A stretch of 63,896 nucleotides of DNA, filler included. It is 6 parts of 6 records of this genome, joined end to end, with 100 filler letters (N's around TTAATTAATTAA, not from the genome) between each part and the next. Parts side by side here need not be neighbours in the genome. Positions count along the whole stretch, not along the records: positions 28,165 to 51,754 come from DRR378314_185; 5 more parts are not named here. One strand, given 5' to 3'. Positions 28,386-58,043 of the stretch are shown piece by piece. Within the stretch, counting starts at the first letter, position 1. Every line of letters starts with the position of its first letter. The notes beneath the pieces are model-generated. The model was not told the origin of the DNA and ran no database searches. It worked only from the letters and a program-made list of their open reading frames with translations. A program made the translations under genes and the position numbers.

Positions 28386-28390
28386 ACACC

Positions 28391-31300
28391 TCAGGCTTTA
28401 CCGGACGTCTTGCCCTTTGCCTTCTTCTCCGCAGCGATCACATGTTCCGCCAGATCACGGGCAATGGCAAACGCCCCCTTGATCTTATCCGCATCTGATT
28501 TCCAGTCGCGTTTCACCACGATCTTGTTGTCGCGGACCTTGGCCAGCCCACGCTGATCCTGAATGAACGATACCAGGCCTTCAGGAGAGGCAAATTTGTC
28601 ATTGTGGAACTGGATCGTGGCCCCCTTGGGCCCGCCGTCCAGCTTGGCAATACCGGCGCGTTTACACATCGCCTTGATCCGCACCACCAACATCAGCGTG
28701 TTTACCTCTTTGGGCAGCTTGCCAAAACGGTCAATAAGCTCCGCCGCGAACCCTTCCAATTCTACCTTGGTGCTGAGGCCCGACAGGCGGCGATAAAGCC
28801 CCAGCCGCACATCCAGGTCAGGCACATAGGTTTCCGGGATCAGTACCGGCACACCCAGATTGATCTGTGGTGCCCATTGCTCATCCGTTTCCGACAGCCC
28901 TTCCATCTGGCCAGATCTGATCTTGGAAATCGCCTCTTCCAGCATGGATTGATACATCTCAAAGCCGACATCGCGCATCTGGCCGGATTGCTCTTCCCCC
29001 AGCAGATTGCCCGCGCCGCGAATGTCCATGTCCTGTGATGCCAGCGTAAAACCGGCCCCCAGCGTGTCGAGCGAGCCCAGCACCCGCAGCCGCTTTTCCG
29101 CCAGCGGCGTCAGCTTTTCGCGCGGCTTGGTTGTCAGATAGGCATAGGCGCGGGTTTTGGAGCGGCCCACGCGGCCCCTGATCTGATAAAGCTGCGCAAG
29201 ACCGAACATATCCGCGCGATGCACGATCATGGTGTTTGCTGTCGGGATATCCAAACCGGATTCCACAATCGTAGTCGCCAGCAGGATGTCGAATTTGCCA
29301 TCGTAAAAGGCATTCATCCGGTCATCCAATTCCCCCGCAGCCATCTGCCCATGCGCCACGACATAGGTCAGCTCCGGCAGTTGGTCTTTCAGGAAGGCTT
29401 CGATTTCGGGCAGGTCACTGATGCGTGGCACAACGTAGAAGGATTGCCCGCCACGATAATGTTCACGCAGCAGCGCCTCGCGCAGCGTGACCGCATCAAA
29501 TTCGCTGACATAGGTACGGATTGCCAGACGGTCGACTGGCGGTGTGCCGATGATGCTGAGGTCGCGCACACCGGTCAGCGACAGTTGCAAGGTGCGCGGG
29601 ATCGGCGTGGCGGTCAGGGTCAGCACGTGAATATCTGTGCGCAGGGATTTCAGGCGTTCCTTATGCTGCACGCCGAAATGCTGTTCCTCGTCAATCACCA
29701 ACAGGCCAAGGTTCTGAAACCTGATGCCCTTTGCCAGCAGCGCATGGGTGCCAATGACAATATCAACCGTGCCCTTGGCCATCCCGTCACGGGTCGCTGC
29801 GGCCTCTTTTGCGGGCACAAAGCGGCTGAGCTGGCGCACCTCAATCGGAAAGCCACGAAACCGCTCTGCAAAGCTTTTGTAATGTTGCCGTGCCAGCAGG
29901 GTTGTCGGCGCGATCACCGCCACCTGCACACCGGACATGGCGGCCACAAAGGCCGCCCGCATGGCCACTTCGGTCTTGCCGAAACCAACATCGCCACAGA
30001 CCAGACGGTCCATCGGATTGCCGCTGGTCAGATCGTCGATCACATCAGAAATGGCGCGCAGCTGGTCGTCGGTTTCCTGATAGGGAAAGCGGGCCGAAAA
30101 CGCATCCCACATGCCCGGAGGCGGATCAAGCACCGGCGCACGGCGCAACGCACGTTCTGCAGCAATGCGGATCAACTTGTCCGCCATCTCGCGAATGCGT
30201 TCTTTCAGCTTGGCCTTTTTCGACTGCCAGGCCCCGCCGCCCAGCTTGTCCAGCAGCCCCTCTTCATGGCCATATTTGCTCAGCAGTTCGATATTCTCAA
30301 CCGGCAGATACAGCTTTGAATTTTCGGCATATTCCAGCAGCAAACATTCATGCGCCGCCCCCGCCGCAGTGATCACCTCCATACCCAGATAACGACCGAT
30401 GCCGTGATCCACATGCACCACCAGATCACCCGGTGTCAGGCTTTGGGTTTCGGTCAGGAAATTCGCCGCACGTTTCTTGCGTCTGGGCGCGCGGATCAGC
30501 CGGTCGCCCAAAACATCCTGCTCCGAAATCACCGTCAGTTTGCCGTCTTCCCAAGGGGCCTCAAACCCGTGTTCCAACGCCCAGACCGCCAAATGCAGCC
30601 CACGTTTACCCAGACGTTTGGCTGATGGGATTGGAATCGCTTCTGCCAGCCCTTCATCTTCGATCAGCCCGGTCAAGCGCTCGCGCGCGCCTTCGGAGTA
30701 GCTGGCAATCACCACCGGTCCTTCTTGAAGTTTTGCTTTAAGGTGATCCGCCAATGCACCGAAAAGACTGATCGTTTCCTGCTGGCGTTCAGGTGCAAAG
30801 TCGCGCCCGATCCGCGCACCCGCGTCCAGCACATTTGGCCCCGTCGGCTGCGGCAGCGTCGTCATCTGGATCACCCGGTGGTCCGCTGTCGCCAGCAGCC
30901 ATGCCTCATCCGTCAGATACAGACCTTCAGGCGGCGCGGGCTTGTAAACACTGTCCATTTTGGAACGGTTCGCCATGGCGATCTTGCGGGTTTCATATTG
31001 ATCTTGGATGCTTTCCCAACGGGCCAGACGGCTGGCGGTCAGTTGATCATCCAGCGTGATCGCCGCCTTGGGCAGATAATCAAACAGGGTTTCCATGTCA
31101 GCATGGAAAAACGCCAGCCAATGTTCAGCGCCCTGATGTTTGCGTCCTGCGCTGATCGCCTCATAAAGCGGATCATCCGTGCCCGCCGCGCCAAATTCGA
31201 TACGGTAGTTCTGGCGGAAACGGGTGATCGCCGCCTCGTCCAAGATGACCTCGGAAACCGGGGCCAGTTCGACCAGCTCCAGCTTTTCCGTGGTGCGTTG

Positions 31301-34506: not shown

Positions 34507-36975
34507 ATGGCCCTGATCTTTCGCTGGCTTATCCGTCTTGCCGCCACGCTTGTGGTGCTCAGCGTGCTGACGATCACTGTGATATACTGGCTCGCCTCGC
34601 GCTCCTTGCCAGATTACACCGATACGGTGCCCGTGCGCGGGCTGACCGCCCCGGTCGAGATCGTGCGCGACAATGCCAATGTGCCGCATATTTTTGGCGA
34701 AACCGACGCGGATGTCTTCTTTGGTCTGGGATTCGCCCATGCACAGGACCGCATGTGGCAGATGACTATTCTGCGCCGTACCGCACAGGGCCGCCTCAGC
34801 GAGGTTTTCGGGGCTTCGACACTGGATATCGACAAGCTGATGCGGCGGCTGGACCTTTATCCGCTTGCCGTAGAATCCGCCGCTGCATTGGATGCAAAAA
34901 CCCTTGCTGCGCTTGAAGCCTATGCCGCTGGCGTCAATGCCCGCCTGAACCAGATCAACACCGAAGCTCTGGGACGTGGGGCTCCGGAAATGCTGTTGTT
35001 CAATGCACCAATGGCCCCTTGGCGCCCGGCCGATTCCGTGGCTATCACCAAATTGATGGGGGTGCAGCTGTCCGGCCATCTACAGGGTGAAGTGATCCGC
35101 GCCCGCACGTCTCTGGCCCTGCCAGATGAGGACCGGGTACGTGACATCCTGCCTGATTTCCCCGGTACCGGTGTTGCCGCCCTGCCGGAATATGCCAGCC
35201 TTGCCCCCGGTGTGCGCCGCCATGCGGCAAATATCCCGGTCAACCCACACCCGCTTTCGCCGTTCAAGGACATGGCCTTTGCCGGTGCTTCCAACGCCTG
35301 GGCGGCAGCCCCCTCGCGTTCTGCTTCTGGCGGGACATTGCTGGCCAATGATCCACATCTGGGGTTTACCGCCCCATCGATCTGGTATCTGGCGCGGCTT
35401 GATCTGCAATCGGGCGGCGTGATCGGGGGCACCATCCCCGGCATGCCGGTGGTTCTGACCGGGCGCAGCGATGCTTTGGGCTGGGGGCTGACCTCGGCCT
35501 ATCTGGATGATCAGGATGTCTATATCGAAGAGGTGAACCCAGACAACCGCGAAGAATATCGCACACCGGATGGGTTTAAGGCGTTTAGCAAACGCGCCTC
35601 AATCATCACGGTCAAGGACGCGGATCCGGTGACCCTGACCCTGCGCTGGACCGATAACGGGCCGGTACTGCCCGGGTCACATTATAACCTTGCCAGTATC
35701 ACACCGCCGGGCCATGTGACCTCGCTCAACTGGACCGTGCTGACGCCGCGCGACACCTCTCTGGCTGCGGCCATGGCCCTGATGGAAGCGAAATCTGTTG
35801 AGGAAGGCATCAAGGCCGCCCAACCCTATATCGCCCCGGCACAGAACCTGACATTGGTCGACCGCGAGAATATCGCGATGAAGATGATCGGTGCCATGCC
35901 CCGGCGTGATGCCGGGCACCAAAGCCAAGGGCGTATGCCCGCACCGGGCTGGATCGCCGCGAACCGCTGGCAGGGCACCCTGCCCTATGCCGCAAATCCC
36001 GAATTCGTCGCCCCCGTTGGCGGTATTCTGGGCAATACCAATAATAAAACCGTGGACCGCCCCTTTCCCAATCATGTGTCGTTTCTCTGGGGGGACACCC
36101 AGCGGGTGCAACGCTGGCAACGGTTGATGCAAACGCGGCAGGTACATACCCGCGACAGCTTCATCGAGGCGCAGCTGGACACGGTCAGCTTCACCGCCCG
36201 TTCGCTGCTGCCGCTGATCGGTGCCGAACTCTGGTTCACCGGCGAGGCCGCACCTGACGGAAGCGCCGAACGTCAACGTCAACGCGCATTGATCCTGTTG
36301 GCCGGCTGGTCAGGCGAGATGAACGAACATCTGCCCGAACCGCTGATCTATGCCGCCTGGCTGCGCAGCCTTCAGGCCCGGCTTATTCAGGATGAACTGG
36401 GCCCGCTGGCGGCTGAGTTTGACCATGTGCAACCGCTGTTCATCGAACGGGCCTTTCGGAATGTAAACGGGGCCAGCGTCTGGTGTGACGTGCTGCAATC
36501 CGCACGTGTCGAGGACTGTGCCGAAATGGCGCGGCTGGCTCTGGATGACGCCCTGTTGTGGATCAATGAAACATGGGGGCCGCAGCTGGAAAGCCTGCGT
36601 TGGGGCGATGCCCATCAGGCAACCCATGACCACCCGGTGCTTGGGACTGTGCCGGTGCTGCGCTATTTCGTGAACATTCGCCAGTCGACGTCCGGCGGGG
36701 ACAACACCTTGCAACGCGGGCGGACCAAGGGTGAAGACCCCGACCCATTCAGCAATGTGCATGGTGCCGGCTACCGTGGCGTGTATGATTTTGCCGACCC
36801 GGATTCCTCGGTCTTTGTCAGCTCCACCGGTCAATCCGGCCATTTCCTGTCACGCCATTACGACGATCTGGCGCAGCTGTGGCGGCGTGGAGAATATATC
36901 CCGATGTCGCTTGATGCCGATCTGGCCCGCGCCGCCTCCGTCGGAGTGACAACTCTCACTCCGGTTGCCCCATGA
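34507..36975 (+). CDS. Penicillin acylase-family (Ntn hydrolase) amidase
   Basis: [24 protein letters not shown] nucleophile, [17 protein letters not shown]. Confidence 0.92.
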
Positions 36976-37535
36976 ACCGCGTTATCCTGTTCAACAAACC
37001 TTTTGGCGTATTGTCTCAATTCACCGACAAGGGCACCCAAGGGTCCAACCGCCCGACCCTCTCTGCCTATATCGACCAGCCTGCATTCTATCCCGCTGGC
37101 CGGCTGGACCGCGACAGTGAAGGCTTGATGGTGCTGACCGACAACGGCGCGCTACAGGCCCGGATCGCCCATCCGAAATACAAACGCCCAAAAACCTATC
37201 ACGTGCAGGTCGAGGGCACTGCGGATGCCAAAGCGCTGGATGCCCTGCGCAAAGGCGTGATGTTGAAAGATGGCAAAACCGCCCCGGCCGAGATCACCCA
37301 GATTGATACTCCGGAAGGTCTGTGGGAGCGTGACCCACCCGTGCGGTTTCGCAAAACCGTGCCGGATGTCTGGCTGCGCATCACCATCCGCGAGGGCCGC
37401 AATCGACAGGTGCGCCGGATGACAGCGCATGTGGGTCTGCCCACCTTGCGGCTGATCCGCGTTAAGATCGGCGATTGGGCACTGAATGACCTGCGCCCCG
37501 GTGCCTGGCGCTGGGCCTCGGAAAACGGCGCATAA
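36972..37535 (+). CDS. rluE: 23S rRNA pseudouridine synthase E
   Basis: [43 protein letters not shown]. Confidence 0.9.
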
Positions 37536-37614: not shown

Positions 37615-39381
37615 CTAGGGTGACTGAAGCATGGCGACCATCTGATCGCGCATAACGAATTTCTGTGGCTTTCCCGTAATGGTCATTGGGATTTCATCCA
37701 CGATCCTGACATGTTTCGGGATCTTGTAATGTGCGATTTGCCCCTGACAGAACTGTCGAACAGCATCCTCTGGCAGATCCGCGTTTTTCCGTGCAACAAC
37801 CCAAGCACAGACTTCTTCCCCAAGTTTCTCATGAGGAATACCAAAAACCTGAACCTCTGCGATTTCGGGGTGGCGGAACAGGAATTCTTCAATCTCTCTT
37901 GGGTAGATATTTTCACCGCCGCGAATGATCATGTCCTTCACCCGTCCAACAATTGTGCAAAACCCATCGTGGTCAAATGTGGCCAGATCTCCGGTGTGCA
38001 TCCAACCGTCGATGATCGCCTCTTCGCTGCGTGTATCGTCGTCCCAATACCCCTTCATGACGGAATAACCACGCGTACAAAGTTCCCCTTGCCCACCAAC
38101 CGGCACAATCTGACCCTCGGCATCGATGATCTTGACCTCAAGATGGGGATGGACACGCCCAACCGTCGCACAGCGCTTGTCCGTGGGATCATCGACAAAA
38201 CTCTGGAATGAAACCGGCGAGGTTTCGGTCATGCCATAACAGATGGTCACATCCTTCATGTTCATCCGAGAATTCACGCGTTCCATCACGTCAATCGGGC
38301 ATGGGGCACCGGCCATGATGCCCGTGCGCAGGGATGACAGGTCAACGGGGTTTTGCTCAAGTTCTTGCAGCATGGCAACAAACATTGTCGGCACACCGTA
38401 GACCGCTGTGCAGCGTTCTTTTGACAGTGTTTTTAATGTCCCGGCGGGCTCAAAGGCTTCACCGGGAAAGACCATTGCCGCCCCTTTGCTAACGGCACCA
38501 AGCGTGCCCATCACCATCCCGAAGCAATGATATAAAGGGACAGGAATGCACAAACGGTCTGCTTCGGTCAATTTGATCCGCCCGGTGACGAAACCTGCGT
38601 TGTTGACGATGTTGTAATGGGACAGCGTTGCCCCCTTTGGCACCCCGGTTGTTCCTGACGTGAACTGGATGTTAATCGCATCATCCGGGCTAAGCGTGCT
38701 TTCGATCACCGACAGGCGCAGTTGTTGCGCAGGCCCGCCGAGGTTTTTCACATCCTCAAACCTGAAAGTACCTGGGGTTTCTTCCGGCCCCATGACAATG
38801 ACATTTTTTAATGTGGGCAGCTTTGTTGCATTCAGCCGCCCCGGTTCCGTATTTTCCAACTCTGGTGCCAGTTGCTGCACCATTTTCAGATACTCGGAGG
38901 ATTTGAACCGCCGCGCCAAGACAAGCGCTTTGCAGCCGACCTTGTTCAACGCATATTCGACCTCCGACAGACGGTAGGCAGGATTGATATTGACCAAGAT
39001 CAACCCGATGCGCGCAGTTGCAAACTGCGTCAAAACCCATTCGTAGCGGTTGGGTGACCAGATCCCGATGCGATCGCCCTTTTCCATCCCCAAGGCCAGA
39101 AAGCCAGAAGCCAAGGCATCAACATCTCGGTCGAAATCATAATAGCTCAACCGCTCGCCGGTCTCTTGAAAAAACAATGCCTCGCGGGGGCCAAACCGGG
39201 ATACTGTTTCGCGCAGCAATGCCGGGATGGTAATATATCTTAACTCCTGTTCAGTAGAGCCTTTCACATATGATTGCCCATCAGCCGGTGCCAAGGCAGA
39301 GGCAGTGGCACTATCAGCTTTGCCTTGAGAGCGTGCAGCAGCGCCGAGCTTATGCGCCAGACTTTCGTTCAGAATTGACAT
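37615..39381 (-). CDS. Acyl-CoA synthetase (ACSF2/YngI-like AMP-binding protein)
   Basis: [62 protein letters not shown]. Confidence 0.92.
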
Positions 39382-39391
39382 GATGCGCTCC

Positions 39392-41764
39392 TCACATTGT
39401 CCGCCAGTCGTCGCTTTGTTCAAACGCATGCGCCGCCTGATAGATTTTCATCTCGCCGTAGTTCGGTCCAACCAGCATCATGCCAATCGGCAGCCCCTCC
39501 AGAAGGCCGCAAGGCACGCTCATCGCGGGCAGCCCACCGTTAAACGGGGCGGTATTTGCGATCATCTCGAATGCGCGCTGAACGTAAAGCGAAATAGAAC
39601 AATCTGCTGGCGGGATTTGTTGCGGCTTCATCGGAACGGTCGGCATCAGCAAGAGGTCATATTGCTTCAACGCCGCGGCGTATTTTTCATTCACCTTGCG
39701 CATCAGGTTTTGCGCCTTGCCGTAAAACCTGCCGCGATACCGCTCTTGGAAATATTCCCCCAAGAACATGCAAGTCTTCAAAGAATGGCTCAGTTCATCC
39801 GGGCGGCTGCGCCACTGCGCCATGTGATCCATCATAGACGGCACAAAGAGGCCGCGATAATTCGTACCGGCCGAATTGCCGTGCATCATGTGATCCTGCA
39901 AGCCTTCAACCGTGATCGCCGTCCAGCAATCCACGGCCAGCCCATGTTCCGGGACAGAGACCTCATCAACGCGCGCGCCCAGTTCGCGAAACCGCTCTGC
40001 TGCTGCACGCACTTTCTGATCAACATCGGATTCAGCGGATGGTCCACCAAACCCTTCCTTAAGGATGCCAATGCGCATGCCATGCGCGCCTTTGCCAAGA
40101 GCTTCGGTATACCGATAGGTCCGCGGTTTGTATTGACGCGGATCAAGACCGTCCTCACCTGCGAGAATTTCCAGCAACATCGCATTATCCGCGACCGTCT
40201 TGGTGACCGGCCCCACGTGGTCGATTGTTTGCTCGATGGGCATCACACCCGAATAAGGCACCAGCCCATGTGTGGCTTTCATACCGTAAACACCACAGTT
40301 GGACGCCGGGATGCGGATCGACCCGCCCTGATCCCCGGCAATGGCCATATCAACCTCGCCCGCTGCGACAAGCGCCGCTGAGCCGCCAGAAGATCCCCCC
40401 GCCATATAGCCGCGTTTCCATGGGTTGTGGATTGGTCCCTTGGCATTGGTATGAGAGCCACCGGACAGACAAAAATTCTCGCAATGGGCCTTGCCCGCGA
40501 TTGTGGCACCCGCGTCCAGCATGCGCGTGACAATGGTGGCGTCAATCTCCGGGGTATAGCCTTCCATGATTGAAGAGCCGTTCATCATTGGAACACCGGC
40601 AAGGCAGATCGTGTCCTTCAGTGCAATACGCTTGCCCCGAAGCGGTCCATCCATCGCGCCTTTCACCTCGGTCTTAACATACCAGGCATTCAAGGCATTG
40701 TCAGAGGCATCGGGGAAATGACCGGGCGCACGGGGATATCGCACTTCAGGAAGGTTGTCAGGCAGCGCATCCAGACGATCATATGCCTGTATGTAAGGTT
40801 CAATGATCTCGCAATATTCTGAAAGCTCAGCGTCTGTCAGGCTCATTCCGAACCGCTCTGCCATGGTCCGCATCTGACTTAAGGTCGGGCGTTTGATTGT
40901 CATATTGGTCACCGCAGGTTGCGATGCATCAGACAAAAGGTCTGAAGGCATCCGTGTTGGGTTGGAAAGTGCCGATGTCGGCGCATCTGTATTGGTTGAG
41001 GAGGAAGGTACCGCACTGCCCCGTGTTGAACGCGCAGCACCGAAGCCGAGGAACTGATCGACCTTCGCCTGATCAGAAAGATCGGCTTTAGAAAGCGCGC
41101 CGGTGATACGGCCCCGCTCAAGCACCAGCACACGATCAGAAAGGTCCGAGATGAAATCAAAATTCTGCTCGACCAAGAGGATCGATAGCCCCCGCTCATG
41201 GCGCAGTTTCAAAAGCGTCTCGGACATCTCTTCAATGATCGAAGGCTGAATGCCTTCAGTGGGTTCATCCAGCAAGAGAAACTCTGGATCGCCCATCAAA
41301 CACCGCGCCAGCGCCAGCAATTGTTGTTCCCCGCCGGAAAGCGCTCCGCCTTCGCGGTCCAGCAAACGCACCAGTCGTGGGAAATCCTCTAGGACGGCAT
41401 CGATCACGTCATCTTCACTGCCCCCCGAATAGTCGTGCCACGCAAATCGCAGATTGTCGCGAACAGACAGCTGCGGAAAAATACCGCGTCCCTGAGGAAC
41501 ATAACCGATCCCAAGCCCTGCACGTTCATTCGGTGCCATGCGGGTAATCTCTGTCCCATGAAACCGGATCGTTCCAGAGGTCGCGGGCAAAAACCCCATC
41601 GCAGTCTTCAAAAGCGTGGATTTCCCCATGCCGTTATGGCCAAGAATGCCAACGACTTCATTTTCGCCGATCTGGAAATCAATGCCGTGCAATACAGGCA
41701 CTTTGCCATATCCGCCTGACAGGCTTTTGACTTCGAAAAGGGCGGCGCGGTCTTCTTGTTTCAT
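39392..41764 (-). CDS. Fusion: UrtE/LivF-like ABC ATPase + amidase-signature amidase
   Basis: aa ~1-243: [34 protein letters not shown]; ~45-aa S/T/P linker; from MTIKRPT (40903): [21 protein letters not shown]. One 790-aa ORF with no stop. Confidence 0.88.
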
Positions 41765-42480
41765 CAGGCGTTCTTTCCAAGATAGACATTGCGGACCACC
41801 GGATCAGACATGACCTTGTCGACATGGTCCTCCATCAACAAAGCGCCCTGATGAAACACCGTGACCGTTGAGGCGATGGAGCGGATAAATTGCATGTCAT
41901 GTTCAACGATGACGACGGCGGCAGTGCGGGTCAGCTCGTGGATGATTTCGCTCATGCGTTCGACATCTTCGGCGCTCATGCCTGCGGCGGGTTCGTCAAG
42001 AAGAACAAGCCAGGGGTCAGCAACCGCCACCAAGCCAAGCTCTACCCGCTGGCGTTCCCCATGCGCCAGACGGCCCAGATCGGCCTTGGCAATCGGTCCC
42101 AGGCGCAAACGATCGATAATGTCACTGGTTTTTGTATTTGCCTCACGTGTCGGCATGAAACGCCGTGCGGCCATCCAGATGTTTTCAAACACCGACAGCG
42201 CATCCATCACATTTGGCACCTGCGTTTTGATGCCGACGCCCAATACGGCAATCTCATGCGGGTGCCAACCTGTGGTGTCCTGCCCCCGCATAAAAACCTT
42301 ACCTTCGGTTGGTGTATGAAGCCCGGTAACGCATTTGAAAAAGGTCGATTTGCCCGCCCCATTAGGCCCAATCAGACAGCGCAGCTCGCGCGCTTTTAGT
42401 CTGAAATCAACGTTGTCGGATGCAACCACGCCGCCAAAGCGTTTGGTTAGCCCTTCGGTTTCGAGAACAATCTCAGCCAT
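41764..42480 (-). CDS. UrtD/LivG-like ABC ATP-binding protein
   Basis: [49 protein letters not shown]. Confidence 0.9.
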   Translation of the reverse strand: MAEIVLETEGLTKRFGGVVASDNVDFRLKARELRCLIGPNGAGKSTFFKCVTGLHTPTEGKVFMRGQDTTGWHPHEIAVLGVGIKTQVPNVMDALSVFENIWMAARRFMPTREANTKTSDIIDRLRLGPIAKADLGRLAHGERQRVELGLVAVADPWLVLLDEPAAGMSAEDVERMSEIIHELTRTAAVVIVEHDMQFIRSIASTVTVFHQGALLMEDHVDKVMSDPVVRNVYLGKNA

Positions 42481-43510
42481 ATGTACCTCCGGCCTGCCGG
42501 GAACCACGCCGGTGGCGACGGTTCCTTGATGCGCGTTTTGCAAAACTTACAGACCAAAGCGATGTCACTGCCGGCACGATTCCTTTGGGCAGAAACAGAA
42601 CGAACAACACAAGAATGATCCCTGTGATCAAGGTGTTATCGATCAGCGTTTGCTGCCCGAGTGCGAACTTCAGATAGGCCAACCCGGCAGCGCCAAGAAT
42701 GGGGCCAAAACGCGTGCCCAGCCCGCCAACAATGCACCAGATGATGATCTCGGCGGATTGGCCAAGGCTGAACAGACCGGGGGTCACAATCTCCCCCCAG
42801 TTCGCAAAGAACCCGCCTGCCAGACCAGCAATTCCCGCCCCTATTGCAAAGAGGGCCGTCTTGCGCGCCCGCACGTCATACCCCATCAGGGACACGCGGG
42901 TTTCATTCTCCCGAATACCAACCGCGATGCGCCCGAAAGGTGTGCGCAACAACCAGGTGATAAAGAAAAACACCATGATCAGCGCGACGGCACTGACATA
43001 ATACAGCGCATCACCCCAGATATAACTGTCGGGTTGTCCGGGGACGTTCAATGTGTGGAAACCGGGAATGCCATTGAAGCCACCCAATCTGGCCTCGCCA
43101 ATCTTATATTGCGGACCTGCCGTGGAATTCACAAATTTGAACAGGATCAAGGTCACCACTAAAGTGATAACGCCCAGATATACATCCGTCAGACGTCCGT
43201 AGAACATCATCGCCCCCAAAAGGGCAGCAAACAGGGCCGGAACAAAGACCGCCAGCAGCATTGGAACGGTGCTTTCGCCGATATTGATCGCAGCAACGGC
43301 ATATGTATATGCCCCAAGCCCGAAGAACGCGGCCTGTCCAAAGCACAGGATGCCGCCAAACCCCCAGATCAGCCCAAGACTGAGCGCCAGCATGCCGTAG
43401 ATGACGAGAACCGTAAGCGTATAGGTGCTGATCAACATCGGCATGACAAACAACAGCAAGACAGCAAAGATCAAAGCCGCAACATCGCCTTTTCCCCATG
43501 TAAGCGACAT
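42473..43510 (-). CDS. UrtC/LivM-like ABC permease
   Basis: LIWGFGGILCFGQAAFFGLGAY, GGFNGI, VGGLGTRFGP. Confidence 0.88.
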   Translation of the reverse strand: MSLTWGKGDVAALIFAVLLLFVMPMLISTYTLTVLVIYGMLALSLGLIWGFGGILCFGQAAFFGLGAYTYAVAAINIGESTVPMLLAVFVPALFAALLGAMMFYGRLTDVYLGVITLVVTLILFKFVNSTAGPQYKIGEARLGGFNGIPGFHTLNVPGQPDSYIWGDALYYVSAVALIMVFFFITWLLRTPFGRIAVGIRENETRVSLMGYDVRARKTALFAIGAGIAGLAGGFFANWGEIVTPGLFSLGQSAEIIIWCIVGGLGTRFGPILGAAGLAYLKFALGQQTLIDNTLITGIILVLFVLFLPKGIVPAVTSLWSVSFAKRASRNRRHRRGSRQAGGTYG

Positions 43511-44376
43511 TACATCTTCCCCTTGAAAAACTTGCCGGTCACACCCTGCGGCAACAGGCGCAGCAGGATCACGGCGGCGATAAGAAGGGCGACTTCTCCG
43601 ATCACAGGCGAGATCGCGAATGTGAAGATTTGATTGACCAGCCCAAAGAGGCCCGAACTGGTGACCAATCCTGTGATCAGGGCCGGGCCGCCGGCAATCA
43701 CTGTGATGAAGGCTTTTGCGATATAGATCCCGCCGGATGTAGGGACGAGGCCAACCAAGGGTGCCAAAACAGCACCGGCAAGCCCGGACAATGCAGATCC
43801 GCAAAAGAAGGTCGCCATATAGATGCGATCAGGACTGTATCCAAGGGCCGCAGCAATGTCGGAACGCTGCATCGTTCCCCGTGCGATCAACCCGGCCCGC
43901 GTTGTTTTCAGCAGGACATAGATGCCCACAAGCAAGCAGATAGTGATGAAAATGACAAAGAAGTTGTAGCCGTTGATCTGGTAATTTCCAACGGTAAACC
44001 CCTTGATCGGTGTGGTGATGCTTGTGGTGGTATTGCCAAAAATCATCGTCACCATACCGATGAAAAACAGGCTAAGCCCCCAAGTCGCCAACATCGTATC
44101 GACCAGACGGCCATAGAGGTGGCGAATGACCAACCGCTCAACGAGCAACCCAATCAGGCCAACAACAAGCGGCGCGATGATCAGCATGGCAACAAAGACA
44201 TTCACACCAAGGTTCACCGCTGTGATGGTCGCATAGCCGCCCATCATCATAAATTCACCATGCGCAAGGTTGATCACTTTCATCATCCCGAACACCACGG
44301 CCAGACCAACACTGATAAGAGCCAATGAGGCGATGGCGTAGAGAATTTCCACCAATATGACGAATGACAGATCCAT
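43510..44376 (-). CDS. UrtB/LivH-like ABC permease
   Basis: GLAVVFGMMKVINLAHGEF, LYGRLVDTMLATWGLSL. Confidence 0.9.
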   Translation of the reverse strand: MDLSFVILVEILYAIASLALISVGLAVVFGMMKVINLAHGEFMMMGGYATITAVNLGVNVFVAMLIIAPLVVGLIGLLVERLVIRHLYGRLVDTMLATWGLSLFFIGMVTMIFGNTTTSITTPIKGFTVGNYQINGYNFFVIFITICLLVGIYVLLKTTRAGLIARGTMQRSDIAAALGYSPDRIYMATFFCGSALSGLAGAVLAPLVGLVPTSGGIYIAKAFITVIAGGPALITGLVTSSGLFGLVNQIFTFAISPVIGEVALLIAAVILLRLLPQGVTGKFFKGKM

Positions 44377-44479
44377 GAAGGCTCACATGCTTTTGGGAAT
44401 GCCGGGGACCACCCGCAGCATAGGGGGATTTGAAGGGCCACCCCGTAAGGCAGCCCGTTGAGATCACGACCGCAAGGGT

Positions 44480-45703
44480 TTAGATTTCGATCTCATATTG
44501 GGTATTGTCGTCCGGATTGGCTTCCAGATCGCAGACCGCTTGTGTATCAATCGGCTGCCGTTGCGGGAGCGTTTCGATCACCTTCATCTGCTGGTCCTGA
44601 ATTTCCATCACATGAACATCAAGGACCGCGTGATGTGTCTTGGGGTCCACAGTCACAACGCCGCCGGGACCCGTGATCGAAATACCGGTTTCCAGCGTTT
44701 CGATGATCGCGTCACGCTCAAGCGACCCCGCTTTGCGGACCCCTTCTGCCCAAGTCAGGATCCCGTGGTAGTTGGATACCGCAATTTCATGCATGCTTTG
44801 ATCGCCGTCATTGGCAGCGGCCCAGGCCTCTTTGAAGGCATTGTTTTCTGGCGTGTCCAATTCTTGCGAATAGTTGTAGGCCACCATGATCCCGTTGCCC
44901 TCTTCAGGGGTCAGCACCTTGTGCTCATTGCCAACGCCCAGTGTCGTCGACGCCAGGGGAATACGATCCTTCATGCCAGCGGCAGCCCATTGCCGGAAGA
45001 ATGACAAATGATTACCCCCGACAAGCGGTGCGATCACCAGATCAGGTGCGGCCGTCTGGATCTTGGCAATGGTTGAGCCAAAGTCGGCGACATCCAGCGG
45101 GAAGAAATCCACGCCGACGGTCTCGCCACCATTGTCGGCCACGAACTTTTGAATCCAGTTCGCCATATACTGTCCGTAGTTATAGTCTGCGGCAAGAATA
45201 TAGACCTTTTTGCCCGATTTACCCATTGCATAAGGCACCAATGCCTCTACTTGCTGCGCTGGTGTCACACCGTTGATAAAGATATTGCGATCACAGACAC
45301 CACCCTCGTAAAGCACGTTATAAAAGTAGAGCGTTTGCGACCTGCGCATGGTTTGACGGATCGCCTCGCGGGAGGCGGACAGAATACCGCCATGGACCAC
45401 GTCAACCTGATCCTGTCGCGTTATCTGTTGGCCATATTGCGTATAAAGCGCCATGTCCGACTGCGTGTCATAGGAAACAACTTCGACCTGCTTGCCCAGC
45501 AAACCACCGTCAGCGTTGATCTGGCTCACCGCCAGACGCATCGCCATGTCCATCGGTTTGCCATAGGCGTCAAAAGGGCCGGAAGTATCCAGAATGGACC
45601 CCAATTTGATGGCATCAGCAGCCAGTGCGAAGCTTGGCAACATGGCGGCACCGGTCAATGCAGCGCCTGTTCCCAGAAATTTACGTCGATTGAATGTAGT
45701 CAT
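44480..45703 (-). CDS. Urea/short-chain amide ABC substrate-binding protein (UrtA/FmdD-like), Tat signal
   Basis: MTTFNRRKFL; SASREAIR, YNVLYEGG, ADYNYG motifs. Confidence 0.88.
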   Translation of the reverse strand: MTTFNRRKFLGTGAALTGAAMLPSFALAADAIKLGSILDTSGPFDAYGKPMDMAMRLAVSQINADGGLLGKQVEVVSYDTQSDMALYTQYGQQITRQDQVDVVHGGILSASREAIRQTMRRSQTLYFYNVLYEGGVCDRNIFINGVTPAQQVEALVPYAMGKSGKKVYILAADYNYGQYMANWIQKFVADNGGETVGVDFFPLDVADFGSTIAKIQTAAPDLVIAPLVGGNHLSFFRQWAAAGMKDRIPLASTTLGVGNEHKVLTPEEGNGIMVAYNYSQELDTPENNAFKEAWAAANDGDQSMHEIAVSNYHGILTWAEGVRKAGSLERDAIIETLETGISITGPGGVVTVDPKTHHAVLDVHVMEIQDQQMKVIETLPQRQPIDTQAVCDLEANPDDNTQYEIEI

Positions 45704-45751
45704 ATTTCCCTCCACGCATGGCTCCCCACCATGCTCTGTTGATTGCATCGT

Positions 45752-47350
45752 TTATTTTTTGTCGTCTTTCGCCTTGATGCGATTGGCGTAATCGGCTGTG
45801 CGGCCAGCAATATTCGGATCGAAATCAAGGCCAATTTCCTCTCCCATCTGCTTCATCGCGGGCAAACGGACGGCCATGCCCAGGATCTGATCCATTGCAG
45901 AGCCAAAGGCGCTGTCACTGCTGCCCTCCCCTGATGGCCCTGCCTGCATGCCTGTCCCGCCGATGTGGTTGATTTTAATCGAGTCGATCTTTTCCACCGG
46001 CTTCATCATCTGCGTCATGATCTCCGGCATCCGGTCGAGCCGCTTTTCTTCCAAGCGCATTCCGACAAGCGCATCGCTCATGGTGTTTTCTGCCTCGATC
46101 AGAGCAGTCTTACCCTTCGCAGCAGCTTCGGATTTCGCCAGTTCAGCAGCAGCCAGCGTTTTGGCGGCTTCGGCCTCTGCTTTGGTTTTAAGGGCCAATG
46201 TCTCGGCATCGCTCTTGGCCTGTGCAGTGCTCAGTTCGATTTCTTTGGCCAGCTTCAATCCGGCCGTCTCATGTTCACGGCGGGCTACGGCTTTTTCTTT
46301 CTGTGCCTGAACATCTTCGGCTGCCAAAAGCACCGCAACCCGCGCCGTTTCCTCGGCAGCCTGTGTCTTGAATTCCGCAGTGCGCAATTGCGCCAGCTTC
46401 GTATCATTTGCGATCTTGGTTTCTTCCAGTGCAAGGATCGCGGCCATTTCGGTGCGGCGCAACGCTTCGTCATTGGCGACCTTTTCAGCTTCGATACGTT
46501 TCAAAGACGTCAGCCTTTGCTGTTCGATCAAAAGGTCGGCTTCTGATTTTGCCGCTTCTTTTTTGGCGCGCGATTCTGCCTCAAGCCGCTCGATGGTTTC
46601 TTGTTGCGCAATTGTTGCCTCGCGCTCTGTACGGTCGATTTCCAGCTGACGCTGATGTTTGGCAAGGCCGCTTTCCCGCACCGCGATATCGGTTTCGGTC
46701 TCGATACGAACCCGCGCGCGGCGTTGTTCCGCAACAAGTTCTGCGTGACGCCGCAAACCTTTGGCAGCAAATGCGTTTTGCTCGTCCAACTGTGACAGAT
46801 CACTTTGATCAACACGGATCAAAGATGCCGAAATAAGTGAAAGGCCAAATTGCGCCGCTTTTTTTGCCACTGCGGCTTCGACTTCTGATGTGAAACTTGC
46901 GCGGTTCGAATGCAGCGCATCAAGGGACCGCGTTGCCGCCGCATTCTGCATCGCATCAAGCAAAGAGCCTTTCAAAAGCTCTTCGATGGCATCACCACCC
47001 CGCTCCACCCTCGCCCCCAATGCCTGAGCGGCGGTTGCCACGGCCTCATCAGTGCCTTCCACCCTGAATTCAAACTCCATCGCAACATCCGCGCGCAGCT
47101 GATCTTCAGTCAACAAGCCCTCGCGGCCTTTGCGTTCGGCTGAGAATGTCACTGCCCCCATCATCACACGCTGCACCTGGTGCAGAATTGGAAGGGCGAT
47201 GCAGCCGCCGTTTAACACAACTTTCCGACCACCGAGGCCGGTCCGTACCAAGGCGGAGTTCAGCGTGGCTTTTGCATAAAATTTTTGGAGAAACCAAATG
47301 CCAAGCAAGATGACAATGGCCAACACAATGATGGAAAAAACCCAGATCAA
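45752..47350 (-). CDS. Flotillin/SPFH-domain protein (YqiK-like)
   Basis: N-terminal TM; ALVRTGLGGRKVV..GGCIALPILH, F.RVE..EAVATAAQALG, Ala/Glu coiled coil, KPVEKIDSIKI; GGGAGGG RBS before TTG 47350. Confidence 0.85.
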   Translation of the reverse strand: MIWVFSIIVLAIVILLGIWFLQKFYAKATLNSALVRTGLGGRKVVLNGGCIALPILHQVQRVMMGAVTFSAERKGREGLLTEDQLRADVAMEFEFRVEGTDEAVATAAQALGARVERGGDAIEELLKGSLLDAMQNAAATRSLDALHSNRASFTSEVEAAVAKKAAQFGLSLISASLIRVDQSDLSQLDEQNAFAAKGLRRHAELVAEQRRARVRIETETDIAVRESGLAKHQRQLEIDRTEREATIAQQETIERLEAESRAKKEAAKSEADLLIEQQRLTSLKRIEAEKVANDEALRRTEMAAILALEETKIANDTKLAQLRTAEFKTQAAEETARVAVLLAAEDVQAQKEKAVARREHETAGLKLAKEIELSTAQAKSDAETLALKTKAEAEAAKTLAAAELAKSEAAAKGKTALIEAENTMSDALVGMRLEEKRLDRMPEIMTQMMKPVEKIDSIKINHIGGTGMQAGPSGEGSSDSAFGSAMDQILGMAVRLPAMKQMGEEIGLDFDPNIAGRTADYANRIKAKDDKK

Positions 47351-47432
47351 AGCTACCCTCCCAAGCAGACAAGAATTTGGGATCGCGCTCATCAGTGTGG
47401 CAACAAGTCCCTTTCACTTAGGCTTGCCGAGT

Positions 47433-47479
47433 TTTGTTTCCAATTCAAGTATTTTATTTTCCAATTCAAATAAAATACT
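47433..47479. promoter_or_regulatory. Tandem candidate MarR operators upstream of the flotillin-ABC operon
   Basis: TTTCCAATTCAA x2 (47437, 47458; 21-bp period); perfect 12-bp IR AGTATTTTATTT/AAATAAAATACT (47448-47479). Confidence 0.65.
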
Positions 47480-47492
47480 CAACTATCTGAAA

Positions 47493-48644
47493 TTATAGCT
47501 TTTTAATGATCCTGAATAGGGCACCATCCGCTTTCGCCAGATAAATAGGTGCCACACCAAGCGGCTGTTCCGCCTTGTTGGGACGTCGAACAGAGTCGAA
47601 GCTGATCGCGCCTGAGCAACGACTGTCCTTGTCGCTCCAGTCGTCTTTATGCATGGTCATGAGACCTGCAAGGAACTGCACACCTTCATAGGTAGACTGG
47701 CCAAGCGAATTCAAGGCCGGCGCGGTTTCTCCATGAATCGCATAATACCTTTCACGGAAGTTTTCGTTTTCAGGTGTCGACAGCGCCCCGAAGTATGATG
47801 AGGCCGAGTAGAGCTCTTTAAGGTTGTCCTCGCCACTTGCTAACAGACCATTTTCCTCAATCGCACATGAAAACCGGATCATGCGTTCATGCATCCCCGC
47901 CTCACCAAAAGCGCGGTTGAAGGTGATGGCATCCTGCCCAACCAGCGAAATCAACACCGCCTCCGCGTCGGTTTCAGCAATCTCTGCAACAAGCCCGGAC
48001 ATGTCGTTCACCCCGAAGGGCATATATTTTTCAAACGAGATCCGGGCGGACATCTGCGAGAGTTTTTCTGCGGCATAGGTATTGGATGAACGTGGCCACA
48101 CATAATCATTGCCGACAAGTGCCCAGTTCTTGATGTTCATATCATTGCAGAAATGTTCAAGTGCCGGCCCGAGTTGACGGTCAGGCGTGTCGCCGATGGC
48201 GAAAATACCCTTGGTATTCTCCCCCCCTTCATAGAGCGGCGTATAGATATAGGGCACGCGTTGGCGCACAATCTTGCTGAGGTTCTGACGCACGGCACTG
48301 ATATGCATGCCGACAATCGCATCAATCGCGCGAACCTCAATCAGAGAGTTGATGACTTCCTCGACCGGGGTTTGCGCCTCAAGTGCTGAATCAATCATGA
48401 TCAACTCTATCGGGCGACCGTTTATCCCGTCTTTCGCATTCAACTGCGCAACGGCCACCTGCGCGCTTGAGATACAGGAAGGTGCCCAAAGCCCCGCAGA
48501 ACCACACATTGGGATCAGCAACCCGATACGAAACGTGCCTCGCGGAAAGTCCGCAAGCTTGCCCTCGATCTCACTGAGCTCGCTCGGCACGATCACCTTG
48601 GACAAGCTTGGACCGATTGAGGATGTGTTAGAAGCCGCCAACAT
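47493..48644 (-). CDS. AmiC-like cytoplasmic amide-sensing protein (type 1 periplasmic-binding fold, no signal peptide)
   Basis: IGLLIPMCGSAGLWAPSC, GMHISAVR, YTPLYEGG, GNDYVWPR, GQSTYEG; start uncertain. Confidence 0.82.
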   Translation of the reverse strand: MLAASNTSSIGPSLSKVIVPSELSEIEGKLADFPRGTFRIGLLIPMCGSAGLWAPSCISSAQVAVAQLNAKDGINGRPIELIMIDSALEAQTPVEEVINSLIEVRAIDAIVGMHISAVRQNLSKIVRQRVPYIYTPLYEGGENTKGIFAIGDTPDRQLGPALEHFCNDMNIKNWALVGNDYVWPRSSNTYAAEKLSQMSARISFEKYMPFGVNDMSGLVAEIAETDAEAVLISLVGQDAITFNRAFGEAGMHERMIRFSCAIEENGLLASGEDNLKELYSASSYFGALSTPENENFRERYYAIHGETAPALNSLGQSTYEGVQFLAGLMTMHKDDWSDKDSRCSGAISFDSVRRPNKAEQPLGVAPIYLAKADGALFRIIKKL

Positions 48645-48665
48645 GACTGCCAAAGTGCATTGAAA

Positions 48666-48685
48666 ATACTTTCCAAGTCAACTAT
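48666..48685. promoter_or_regulatory. Third copy of the operator box, in the divergent amiC/marR promoter
   Basis: ATACTTTCCAAGTCAACTAT, 15/20 identical to each box at 47433 and 47454; imperfect palindrome. Confidence 0.6.
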
Positions 48686-48719
48686 TTCTATCCACAACCA
48701 CCAGAGGATCAGAGCTGCA

Positions 48720-49142
48720 ATGTCAAAATCAAACCCTGTTCAATCCTATTTGTCCTATTCACTCGCAACAGCGCATCGCAAAGTGCATGGGTCACTCAGC
48801 AGGAGATTGAAGGAATTTAACGTTCAGGTTGAGGCCTGGCGGGTGATGGAAATTCTTGAGAGTGGAACAGACATGACAATGGGCGATCTTGCCGAAGCGG
48901 TGCTGATGAACCCGCCCACATTGACAAAACTAGTGGATCGTATGGTCTCCGATGGCATCGTGCACCGCCGCATGGCCAGCATTGATCAAAGGCAGGTGAA
49001 CCTTGTGCTTACCGATCTGGGACAGAAACGTGTTGGTCAAATTCGCGAACAAGCCAGACTCGAAGATGACGAAATCCTGGATAAGATCGGGGTTGAGAAT
49101 GCCGATCTGCTACATCGGATTCTGGGCGAGCTTGTAAAATAG
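48720..49142 (+). CDS. MarR-family transcriptional regulator
   Basis: WRVMEIL..MGDLAEAVLMNPPTLTKLVDRM..G.V.R..DQR..V.LTDLG. Confidence 0.9.
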   Translation: MSKSNPVQSYLSYSLATAHRKVHGSLSRRLKEFNVQVEAWRVMEILESGTDMTMGDLAEAVLMNPPTLTKLVDRMVSDGIVHRRMASIDQRQVNLVLTDLGQKRVGQIREQARLEDDEILDKIGVENADLLHRILGELVK

Positions 49143-49206: not shown

Positions 49207-49236
49207 AAAGCCGCCGAAGGGGTCTTCGGCGGCTTT
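49207..49236. terminator. Bidirectional intrinsic terminator between marR and the DAHP synthase gene
   Basis: AAAGCCGCCGAAG-GGGT-CTTCGGCGGCTTT. Confidence 0.8.
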
Positions 49237-49259: not shown

Positions 49260-50630
49260 TTATCCGGCAGCTTGCGCGCGCTGCTGGTCCCGGCGGGCGC
49301 TCAACTCTTCCGCAACAAGGAAGGCCAGTTCAAGCGACTGGCTGGCGTTCAGGCGCGGATCGCAGGCCGTGTGATAGCGATCTGACAAATCCTCGTCAGA
49401 GACCGCACGCACGCCACCGGTGCATTCGGTCACATCTTGCCCTGTCATCTCGAAATGCACACCGCCGGGGACTGTGCCCTCTGCCGCATGCACGCCAAAG
49501 AACTCGCGGACTTCGCGCAGCACGGATTCGAAAGGCCGCGTTTTGTAGCCGGTCGAGGATTTGATCGTGTTGCCGTGCATCGCGTCACAGGTCCAGACCA
49601 CATTGGCCCCTTCTTCCTGTACCGTTTTGATCAGACGTGGCAGGTTATCCCCCACCGCTCCGGCACCGAAACGCGCGATCAGGGTCAGACGCCCCTCTTC
49701 GTTTTGCGGGTTCAGTTTGGCCATCAGCAGTTTCAGATCCTCGGCTGTCATGCTGGGTCCGCACTTCAGGCCAATCGGGTTCATCACACCAGAAGCAAAT
49801 TCCACATGTGCGCCATCCGGCTGACGTGTGCGGTCGCCGATCCAGATCATATGGCCGGACCCCGCCAGCCATTTGCCGGTCATACTGTCCTGACGGCACA
49901 ACGCCTCTTCATACTCCAGCAACAGCGATTCATGGCTGGTATAGAATTCCACCGATTGCAGCGTATGCGCGGTGTCGGAATTCACGCCAGCGGCGGACAT
50001 GAAATCAAGCGTGTCGGAAATGCGATTGGCAATCTCCCGGTACTTCGCGGCCTTTTCCCCATCGGTAAAGCCCAGCGTCCAGCCATGTACCTGATGCACA
50101 TCTGCGTAACCACCAGTCGAGAACGCCCGCAACAGGTTCAGCGTTGCCGCCGCCTGCGTGTAGGCGCGCAGCATTTTCTCCGGATTCGGAATGCGCGCAT
50201 CGGCGGTGAAATCCAGATCGTTGATGATGTCACCGCGGTAGCTGGGCAGTTCCACACCATCGACGGTTTCGGTATTGGCCGAACGCGGTTTCGCAAATTG
50301 GCCGGCCATCCGGCCCAGCTTGATCACCGGCACCTTGGCACCATGGGTCAAGACAATCGCCATCTGCAACAGCACTTTGAAAGTGTCACGAATCGCATCC
50401 GAGCTGAACTGCTCAAAGCTTTCAGCGCAATCGCCGCCCTGCAACAGGAATGCTTCGCCGCGACCCGCTGCTGCAAGATGCCGCTTCAGCCGGTTCGCCT
50501 CGCCGCCAAAAACCAAGAGTGGATAACGTGCAAGCTGTGCCTCTACGGCATTCAGGGCCGCTTGATCAGGATAGTCAGGCATCTGGATTCGCGGTTTATT
50601 GCGCCAGCTTGATTTACTCCACTTGGTCAT
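49260..50630 (-). CDS. Class II 3-deoxy-7-phosphoheptulonate (DAHP) synthase
   Basis: [44 protein letters not shown]. Confidence 0.96.
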
Positions 50631-50821
50631 GGTCATTTCTCCGGTCAAAGCGCTGACTGTCAGCGCTCTCAAGGTCTTTTCTATACAAAACACAGTGCGC
50701 AGTGACCAGAACCCATTTACGACCTCTTGACGCCGCCCTTTGACCATGGGCAGGGTTCCGGTCAGGTTCAAATGCAATTTCGTTTTTGGGCATCGTTTCC
50801 ACTTCCATCGAAGGACGCTCT

Positions 50822-57897: not shown

Positions 57898-58013
57898 ATC
57901 GGTCCTCCCTGAATGCAACAACGCACGGGGACTAAAGCGAAATCAAATCCAAAGCGCAACGCACTACGGGAGAGAGTTGGAGAAAGAATGTGCAGACTGG
58001 GACGTTTCGTATC

Positions 58014-58043
58014 TGGAGCGGGCGAGGCGATTCGAACGCCCGA
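58014..58043 (-). tRNA. tRNA-Gly, 3' fragment (T-arm, acceptor stem, CCA), cut by contig end
   Basis: Reverse complement TCGGGCGTTCGAATCGCCTCGCCCGCTCCA: GTTCGAATC T-loop, CGCCCGC-U-CCA glycine-type acceptor. Anticodon not in window. Confidence 0.75.

Follow-up and report, generated by a model that had tools for sequence, protein, structure and literature searches.

In the amiEBCRS system of Pseudomonas aeruginosa (1PEA, 1QO0), a cytoplasmic binding-protein homologue, AmiC, adjoins an amidase and holds the regulator AmiR. The same kind of neighbourhood is found in the gene block described here, which lies in a 63.9 kb stretch of DNA (the whole stretch that was analysed, hereafter the window). 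The block consists of an operon, flot-sbp-urtBCD-urtE::ami-acs, for a flotillin, an ATP-binding cassette (ABC) importer with its periplasmic binding protein, an ATPase-amidase fusion, and an acyl-coenzyme A (CoA) ligase, together with genes for an AmiC-like protein and a divergent MarR-family regulator. AmiC holding AmiR resembles our model of the AmiC-like protein holding MarR. In contrast to amiEBCRS, the regulator of the block is a MarR-type DNA binder and not an ANTAR RNA binder like AmiR, its amidase is an amidase-signature enzyme whereas AmiE belongs to the nitrilase superfamily, and the block would take up its substrate through a full ABC importer. An unfused sister operon of Paracoccus methylovorus (type B, see below), in which a Liv/Urt-type importer stands beside this amidase together with AmiC-like and ANTAR genes, ties the family of the block to the amide-inducible ami paradigm.

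Other described systems share further parts of the block. Urt transporters likewise have five Liv/Urt-type components and a binding protein of the urea/amide branch; unlike them, the block has components that score under the Urt cut-offs, an ATPase fused to an enzyme, and a flotillin and a CoA ligase in the operon. The Fmd system of Methylophilus methylotrophus reportedly imports short-chain amides and urea. The amidase shares its full-length architecture with that of the nitrile hydratase cluster of Rhodococcus sp. N-771 (3A1K/3A1I); unlike the block, both this enzyme and BbdA of plasmid pBAM1 (Aminobacter sp. MSH1) are free-standing, without transporter or flotillin. BbdA hydrolyses 2,6-dichlorobenzamide (PMC8460812). 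In addition, the amidase of pBAM1 has a MarR<>AmiC-like pair nearby, as well as an acyl-CoA synthetase of a different AMP-binding subfamily, 28% identical to the ligase of the block. Plasmid pNit of Rhodococcus rhodochrous carries a MarR gene directly beside genes for an aliphatic amidase and an AmiC-like protein (38% identity); this group adjoins a cobalt ECF transporter, and two genes with tubulin-like domains border it as well (L131, 8954-12534). In R. rhodochrous J1, NhhC/NhhD and NhlC/NhlD are pairs of an AmiC-like protein and a small winged-helix regulator acting on amide-induced nitrile hydratase genes, and no direct contact between sensor and regulator is known for either pair. These pairs differ from the one in the block by their actinobacterial hosts and by their nitrile hydratase targets. 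The nitrile pathway of Pseudomonas chlororaphis B23 reportedly includes the acyl-CoA synthetase AcsA (Hashimoto et al. 2005). It reportedly follows the logic proposed for the block, from amide through acid to acyl-CoA within one cluster; it differs in having an aldoxime dehydratase and a nitrile hydratase and in lacking importer and flotillin.

For the flotillin, a precedent comes from Staphylococcus aureus, in which FloA microdomains are reported to support the Isd heme importer with FhuC (PMC10147376). Unlike the situation described below, in which each flotillin lineage lies inside one importer operon, the flotillin of S. aureus is general, genetically unlinked, and has many clients.

The individual pieces of the block are therefore of known kinds. 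The earlier note on this DNA, which knew of no characterised system of this composition, is borne out for the block as a whole by a literature search covering titles and the beginnings of abstracts. Most sub-modules do have precedents, namely the P. methylovorus operon, the amidase, acyl-CoA synthetase, and MarR<>AmiC-like group of pBAM1, and the AmiC-like, MarR, and amidase genes of the Rhodococcus plasmid. In the same titles and abstract beginnings, we found no description of a LivF/UrtE-type ATPase fused to a consuming enzyme, of a flotillin dedicated to an operon or placed within an ABC or amidase operon, of flotillins recurring in importer operons with extended ATPases, or, apart from the genetic precedent of the Rhodococcus pairs, of a MarR partner for an AmiC-like sensor. 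We consider it fairly probable that the block takes up a carboxamide, splits it at the transporter, and then activates the resulting acid under AmiC-like/MarR control, and the operon is best explained as a horizontally mobile, probably amide-inducible catabolic unit.

The ATPase-amidase fusion and conservation of its gene block

Open reading frame (ORF) mapping, Pfam, and NCBIfam placed nine genes in 37615-49142, eight on the minus strand plus the divergent MarR gene, and all nine lie where the earlier note had put them (Table 1). The minus-strand genes are transcribed in the order AmiC-like, flot, sbp, urtB, urtC, urtD, urtE::ami, and acs. Start codons are our choice from the translations, and N-terminal signals were judged by eye. 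With these starts, the junctions, described earlier as overlaps of 1-8 nt in several genes, are tight, with 1-nt overlaps at UrtB/UrtC and at UrtD/fusion and a gap of 2 nt between UrtC and UrtD.

The central gene joins a UrtE/LivF-like ATPase to an amidase. The amidase domain exceeds its family cut-offs (PF01425, 300.5 bits against 27; NF005565/PRK07235, 765.1 against 545) and matches the Rhodococcus amidase 3A1K with an E-value of 9.9e-139 across the full length of the ~500-residue architecture. The KD, GGSSGGS, and GGSIRIP segments, which presumably hold the Lys, cis-Ser, and Ser catalytic residues of amidase-signature enzymes, are identical between the two in the alignment. Furthermore, the domain is 46% identical to the annotated amidase of pBAM1. 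Among 29 aligned fused orthologs, the linker, bounded by GFGAAR at the end of the ATPase and MTIKRPTL at the start of the amidase, was highly variable in length and showed no conserved motif.

A reference genome (G001) carries the same block, with a fusion 100% identical to that of the window, and the fusion was searched for in order, class, and phylum samples of 401 genomes each. In the order sample, 32 genomes matched at E <= 1e-120; 17 of them carried the full-length fusion and 1 an interrupted one, 6 more had both halves in one frame split by stops, and 8 had the amidase part only. At E <= 1e-150, 38 genomes of the class sample matched, 9 with the fusion (8 of these outside the family of the window), and the later mapping of neighbourhoods added a tenth, whose linker is long. 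The phylum sample yielded 16 matching genomes at the same threshold, 2 of them fused and both within the family of the window. The gene order itself was found in the window, in G001, in 28 further loci, and in one fragment, together representing at least eight alphaproteobacterial families. The neighbourhood search for co-occurrence proposed in the earlier note thus recovered the block as a conserved unit in ~30 genomes and on a plasmid.

Two architectures can be distinguished. Type A, to which the block belongs, reads [MarR<>AmiC-like]-Flot-SBP-UrtB-C-D-UrtE::amidase-ACS, with SBP for the binding protein and ACS for the ligase. Type B reads SBP-UrtB-C-D-UrtE-amidase, has the last two genes separate in all cases, and lacks flotillin and ligase. 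Among the 59 amidase rows of the neighbourhood table (31 fused and 28 unfused), a flotillin gene lies upstream in 29 of the 31 fused rows, the remaining 2 being cut by contig ends; for G005, the flotillin half was located on a different contig. The ligase follows downstream in 29 of the 31 (G030 counted) and is absent from the available sequence of G005 and G539. The unfused rows contain no flotillin (0/28) and a single ligase (1/28), in a contig-end fragment that falls inside the fused clade. Separately, one type B genome (G085; L085, C35:28300-48200) has a divergent flotillin at 10126-11382, ~7 kb 3' of the operon on the same strand.

In a quickly computed tree of the amidase domain, all fused loci fell into one group with two deep subclades, ~80% and ~60% identical to the window; one unfused row stood at an unresolved fork, and the nearest outgroups were free-standing amidases beside an AmiC-like<>MarR pair. 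Between the subclades, the fusion retains 53-63% identity and the flotillin 34-45%, its position being kept. Six loci (L037 and L040-L044, from G299, G173, G233, G075, G183, and G241) carry an unfused UrtE-like gene and amidase gene in one frame, separated by one or two stop codons alone; the fusion could therefore stem from stop loss, or the split forms from stop gain. In G030 (L017, C7 ~4232-6743), an insertion of ~2.5 kb splits the fusion near residue 661-665.

Beyond G001, the best relative is 91% identical and belongs to the same family, another family reaches 87%, and same-genus genomes 58-79%, with the block present in 3 of 25 same-genus genomes. A complete block lies on plasmid pTHAF37_e (98.8 kb) of Sulfitobacter sp. 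THAF37, and hit spacing points to two more roseobacter plasmids. These plasmid relatives make Sulfitobacter or a close roseobacter a likely origin of the window. Moreover, 37615-49142 has a G+C content of 0.539, its left flank 0.621, and its right flank 0.564, and all 105 sliding windows of equal length have higher values. The region is thus AT-richer than its flanks, as had been judged by eye, and with 0.564 the right flank is itself rather AT-rich. The core genes rluE and class II DAHP synthase do flank the block as reported, but they are not ancestral neighbours: in all four checked same-genus genomes without the block, they lie 129-245 kb apart, which puts the block at the junction of a rearrangement. 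Presence in few same-genus genomes, plasmid copies, flank rearrangement, and low G+C together point to a mobile accessory module. In a collection of 5.8 billion proteins, the best 120 hits were all full-length fusions of 781-810 residues with 79-91% identity, many of them from marine metagenomes including Tara Oceans, and named only 'amidase' or 'UrtE'.

Flotillins in importer operons

Bacterial flotillin genes usually stand alone or beside NfeD, which makes the clients of their products hard to pin down, and a flotillin inside defined importer operons is thus a clear target for client studies. SPFH genes are likewise described as usually adjoining an NfeD-family partner gene (PMC8656257). The flotillin of the block (Band_7, 56.4 bits; Flot, 104.4 bits; Pfam) has no such partner beside it; its neighbours are the AmiC-like and binding-protein genes, at gaps of ~100 bp and 3-48 bp.

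A Flot domain was found in 4 of the 25 genomes of the genus sample. Three of these are type A, and in the fourth (G021) the flotillin closes another Liv-type importer operon. The order sample has this domain in 109 of its 401 genomes, at 123 places above the cut-off, of which we inspected 78, namely all 60 lower-scoring ones and 18 of the ~63 top-scoring ones. In 47 of these 78 Rhodobacterales loci, the flotillin lies in a Liv-type importer operon with an extended LivF-like ATPase, and the operons fall into three types. Type A accounts for 17. Type U (16/78) comprises permeases, a LivG-like ATPase, a LivF-like ATPase fused to UPF0261 (706-765 residues), a PEP-hydrolase-like protein, and a large flotillin (728-1322 residues). 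Type D (14/78 and 2 from another draw) comprises a binding protein, two permeases, a LivG-like and a LivF-like ATPase, an aldehyde dehydrogenase, and a flotillin, in some loci with a short-chain dehydrogenase between the last two; its LivF-like ATPase of 419-462 residues ends in a disordered, Pro/Ala-rich tail of ~170-210 residues. The remaining 31 flotillins, including all 18 sampled top-scoring ones, have no Liv-type neighbour.

In a flotillin tree computed by a quick method and rooted at the midpoint, types A, U, and D each formed one clade, with supports of 100, 95, and 99. Since these three clades go with different enzymes, the link between flotillin and importer occurs in three operon families. 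This link is a genomic association only. The constant place of the gene in the fused loci and the single clade of type A flotillins support the view that the flotillin of the block is a retained operon member and not a chance neighbour.

From this association we infer a role for the flotillin as a dedicated membrane organiser of the importer-enzyme assembly. A lineage-specific flotillin would corral or cap one Liv-type importer whose LivF-like ATPase bears an enzyme or a docking tail, so that import and first conversion would occur in one membrane-attached assembly. That the flotillin physically organises such an assembly is a tentative suggestion at best, and so is the broader idea that some bacterial flotillins are dedicated parts of a 'transport metabolon' and not general raft organisers. 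If true, these importer operons would be the first genetically defined clients of a bacterial flotillin.

The flotillin might instead be a co-regulated passenger that provides general membrane protection without specific contact to importer or enzymes, an alternative that we regard as possible, if on the unlikely side. It would fit the faster divergence of type A flotillins, given above next to that of the fusion, and the 31 of 78 inspected loci without an ABC neighbour. Against it, the flotillin has stayed in one position, controlled by the operator, in at least eight families, the flotillins of the three operon types each form a separate clade, and the LivF-like ATPase is extended in all three types, a feature that one would not expect a general protectant to follow. 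Moreover, the flotillin of the block is the only Flot-domain gene in G001.

A docking motif shared behind the ATPase by the three flotillin-linked operon types (PTRM/PTRW and IExAAR, by eye) was also considered and was dropped because the alignment of 29 type A linkers held no conserved motif. The type U loci are L067 (G026:C4, 7425-18696), L080 (G248:C1, 9695-19036), and 14 others within L075-L098; in L080, subunits of the xanthine dehydrogenase family come next after the flotillin, and G248, which belongs to the genus of the window, has both type U and type A. Type D was found in L068 (G021:C25, 9784-18605), L101 (G106:C1, 2107-10248), and 14 others within L070-L112.

The AmiC-like/MarR pair and its putative operator boxes

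The AmiC-like protein shows neither a hydrophobic stretch nor an RR motif at its N-terminus by eye and matches AmiC (1PEA) with an E-value of 1.4e-14. Residues S85, Y104, and Y150 of AmiC, which we take to contact acetamide, align with S116, Y134, and Y181, invariant in 23 sequences; AmiC T106 aligns with a proline. The likeness to AmiC seen in the earlier note is thus substantiated on the side of the sensor but does not extend to an AmiR partner: an ANTAR domain was absent from all ten ORFs scanned with Pfam, and the conserved neighbour is MarR (PF01047, 36.8 against 24.6; HpaR TIGR02337, 63.9 against 121.2). The divergent pair was found in 25 related loci, 22 of which were aligned, and accompanies this amidase family in type A loci, in type B loci, and at free-standing amidases.

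A 12-bp box, TTGAAWTGGAAA, occurs at three sites in the window, two 5' of flot and one in the marR/amiC gap. Scanning all 63.9 kb with one mismatch allowed gave only these 3 matches, all in the locus, compared to 0.31 expected, and three matches were reached in 1 of 100 shuffles. In related loci bearing the regulator pair, both of these places hold boxes again, in many cases arranged as the inverted repeat TTTCCAWTTCAA-N8-9-TTGAAWTGGAAA, and the box in the gap is identical in sequence and place in the window and 18 related loci. Furthermore, single boxes precede some type B operons and a free-standing amidase, and the boxes are missing in type A loci without the pair (L034-36, L059-60). Their placement marks flot as the first gene of the regulated unit.

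For complex prediction, two MarR chains and one AmiC-like chain were modelled along with 3 controls, and scores were compared to a mark attained by 51 of 78 solved complexes and 2 of 108 mismatched pairs. The complex scored 0.76 and the best of the controls 0.01, in a three-chain job that ran without supplied alignments and was unlike the calibration set. The runs share at least 92% of contacts, and the predicted local distance difference test (pLDDT) value of the partner is 86. On the MarR side, the modelled interface covers residues 73-99, which by the usual family layout should correspond to the wing and the last part of the recognition helix. Residues 46-58, 237-272, 307-310, and 375-376 form the interface on the AmiC-like side, spanning both lobes and including the invariant G48-S56 loop. 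The model supports binding of the two proteins without demonstrating it. Together, the conserved operator and a complex model above the mark lend support to the AmiC-like/MarR control that had been proposed from the gene neighbourhood. To our knowledge, there is no solved structure of a binding-protein sensor on the DNA-reading wing of a MarR protein; if true, the arrangement would constitute a simple two-protein switch.

Substrate class and proposed mechanism

The importer comprises a complete HAAT (Liv-type) set of two BPD_transp_2 permeases, LivG-like and LivF-like ATPases, and a type I binding protein. The binding protein carries the twin-arginine N-terminus RRKFLG by eye, in agreement with the Tat-exported binder of the earlier note. 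Scored against the Urt models, the binding protein reached 235.8 (UrtA cut-off, 492.75; archaeal type, 344 against 494.8), the permeases 187.6 (UrtB, 250.3; TIGR03622, 249.5 against 374) and 170.1 (UrtC, 296.2), the LivG-like ATPase 226.6 (UrtD, TIGR03411, 304.1), and the ATPase domain of the fusion 260.4 (TIGR03410, 285.8). The earlier designation as a Urt-type importer is accordingly apt as to likeness, whereas every Urt cut-off is missed; by its sequences, the importer is of the Liv/Urt type, in the urea/amide branch, and by the curated test no urea transporter. The periplasmic and the AmiC-like binding protein match the same solved relatives, namely 8TG1, urea-binding proteins, and then AmiC. 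The ligase has AMP-binding (E = 3.7e-97) and AMP-binding_C domains in Pfam, and no solved enzyme of known specificity was close to it. An identification as DmdB was rejected, since 6IHK and 6IJB, which we take to be DmdB-like structures, score ~170 bits, under many other ligases.

We infer the direction of transport and the class of substrate, and MarR may act as a repressor. The Tat-exported binding protein and the Liv/Urt-type importer would bring a carboxamide into the cell, where the amidase, flexibly linked to the UrtE-like ATPase, would split it at the cytoplasmic face into an acid and ammonia or an amine. The ACSF2-like ligase would turn the acid into a CoA thioester for catabolism; the parts of the block fit the import-hydrolyse-activate logic put forward earlier. 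MarR would act at the TTGAAWTGGAAA boxes to set expression, and the cytoplasmic AmiC-like protein would sense the amide, bind the DNA-reading helix and wing of MarR, and lift it off the DNA, with its hold depending on an amide-driven opening or closing of the lobes.

Several results weigh against this reading. All five importer components fall below the Urt equivalog cut-offs, and the ligand class therefore rests on family resemblance. The ligase is just under the NF009233/PRK12583 cut-off (814.8 against 832), and its best solved relatives, feruloyl-CoA and fatty-acyl-CoA synthetases, have modest scores. Six fused loci (L015, L034-36, L059, and L060) have no AmiC-like/MarR pair nearby, so the regulators are not obligatory; no sigma-70-like promoter was found 5' of flot in the promoter/terminator scan, and the departure of the complex prediction from its calibration set belongs here as well. 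Finally, fusion, flotillin, and ligase were probably joined once, as their distribution over the amidase tree suggests, and their joint presence then reflects retention in one lineage, not repeated convergence.

Among characterised amidases, the nearest ones, BbdA (PMC8460812) and the Rhodococcus enzyme, hydrolyse amides of the benzamide type or short aliphatic amides. The substrate could alternatively be a ureide or a secondary amide, for instance an N-acyl amine or an N-acyl amino compound; both halves would then be salvaged, and the acyl part would go to the ligase. The weaker amidase matches do include fatty-acid amide hydrolase, peptide amidase, and aryl acylamidase, and the ligase family resembles ligases for medium- or long-chain fatty acids. 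Yet these secondary-amide enzymes match with E-values of 1e-28 to 1e-37, and the amidase is much nearer to that of the Rhodococcus nitrile hydratase cluster (E ~1e-138); both binding proteins fall into the small-ligand urea/amide branch, and the AmiC-like protein retains the residues aligned to AmiC S85, Y104, and Y150. We therefore regard this alternative as improbable. Lower still stands a service in nitrile metabolism, in which a genomic nitrile hydratase would make the amide and the importer would carry a nitrile or urea. G001 has a gene for a nitrile hydratase alpha subunit (C1:1991690-1992235), and clusters for nitriles or amides contain counterparts of the amidase, of the AmiC-like/MarR pair, and of an acyl-CoA synthetase. 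That gene, however, lies ~520 kb from the block (at C1:1467031) and, unlike in aldoxime-nitrile pathway clusters, not adjacent to the amidase; none is annotated in the 24 kb inspected around the block on pTHAF37_e; and fusing amidase to ATPase makes little sense unless the imported molecule is the substrate of the amidase, which renders this explanation very unlikely. That the block is a chance product of island assembly with separately acting genes, as its low G+C and rearrangement junction might suggest, is hardly credible given a nine- or seven-gene order that recurs on a plasmid and in ~30 genomes, where identity falls as low as 53% for the fusion and 34% for the flotillin, and given the overlapping or nearly touching junctions and a shared operator.

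Import of a carboxamide followed by its hydrolysis at the transporter thus remains the reading we prefer. An importer ATPase fused to a cargo-consuming enzyme would be a rare case, accessible to experiment, in which uptake and first conversion are coupled. Since the fusion is common in marine data under generic labels, algae-associated roseobacters may process amide carbon and nitrogen by a route that has so far gone unrecognised.

Table 1. Positions of the genes, domains, and putative control sites of the block and of its flanking genes in the window.
Feature	Position	Strand	Evidence and remarks
rluE, block flank	36972-37535		
Acyl-CoA ligase (ACSF2/PRK12583-like), at the end of the operon	37615..39429	-	Probable start Met17 at 39381
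UrtE::amidase fusion, 790 residues	39392..41764	-	Pfam ABC_tran residues 25-169, Amidase 364-772
Amidase-signature amidase domain, fusion residues 291-790	39392..40894	-	PF01425 E 3.1e-89
Ser/Thr/Pro-rich linker, fusion residues 244-290 (~47 residues)	40895..41035	-	Sequence
UrtE/LivF-like ABC ATPase domain, fusion residues 1-243	41036..41764	-	ABC_tran E 3.6e-32
UrtD/LivG-like ABC ATPase	41764..42543	-	ABC_tran E 2e-25; probable start 42480
UrtC/LivM-like permease	42473..43510	-	BPD_transp_2 E 2.8e-31; ORF open to 43804, probable ATG 43510
UrtB/LivH-like permease	43510..44376	-	BPD_transp_2 E 3.9e-30
Urea/amide-type periplasmic binding protein	44480..45748	-	Peripla_BP_5/6 E 2e-74, 3e-77; probable start Met16 at 45703
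Flotillin (SPFH and Flot) with N-terminal hydrophobic anchor, first gene of the operon	45752..47392	-	Flot E 5.8e-30, Band_7 E 5.1e-15
Two TTGAATTGGAAA boxes, putative MarR operator	47437..47469	-	21 bp apart, 45-66 bp upstream of flot
AmiC-like cytoplasmic binding protein, putative amide sensor	47493..48653	-	Peripla_BP_6 E 5.7e-59; probable ATG 48644
Third box TTGACTTGGAAA, divergent marR/amiC-like promoter region	48670..48681	-	Box scan
MarR-family regulator, distantly HpaR-like	48720..49142	+	PF01047 E 3.6e-9; ORF open from 48660
Strong hairpin and T-run 3' of marR	49207..49236	+	13-pair stem, 8 GC pairs; faces the end of the DAHP synthase gene
Class II DAHP synthase, block flank	49260-50777		TIGR01358 682 against cut-off 615

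Elsewhere in the window, positions 23001-26000 have a G+C content of 0.70-0.74, compared to a window mean of 0.59, together with a strong AT skew, and local dips to 0.525 and 0.493 were observed at 28001-29000 and 58001-59000, respectively.

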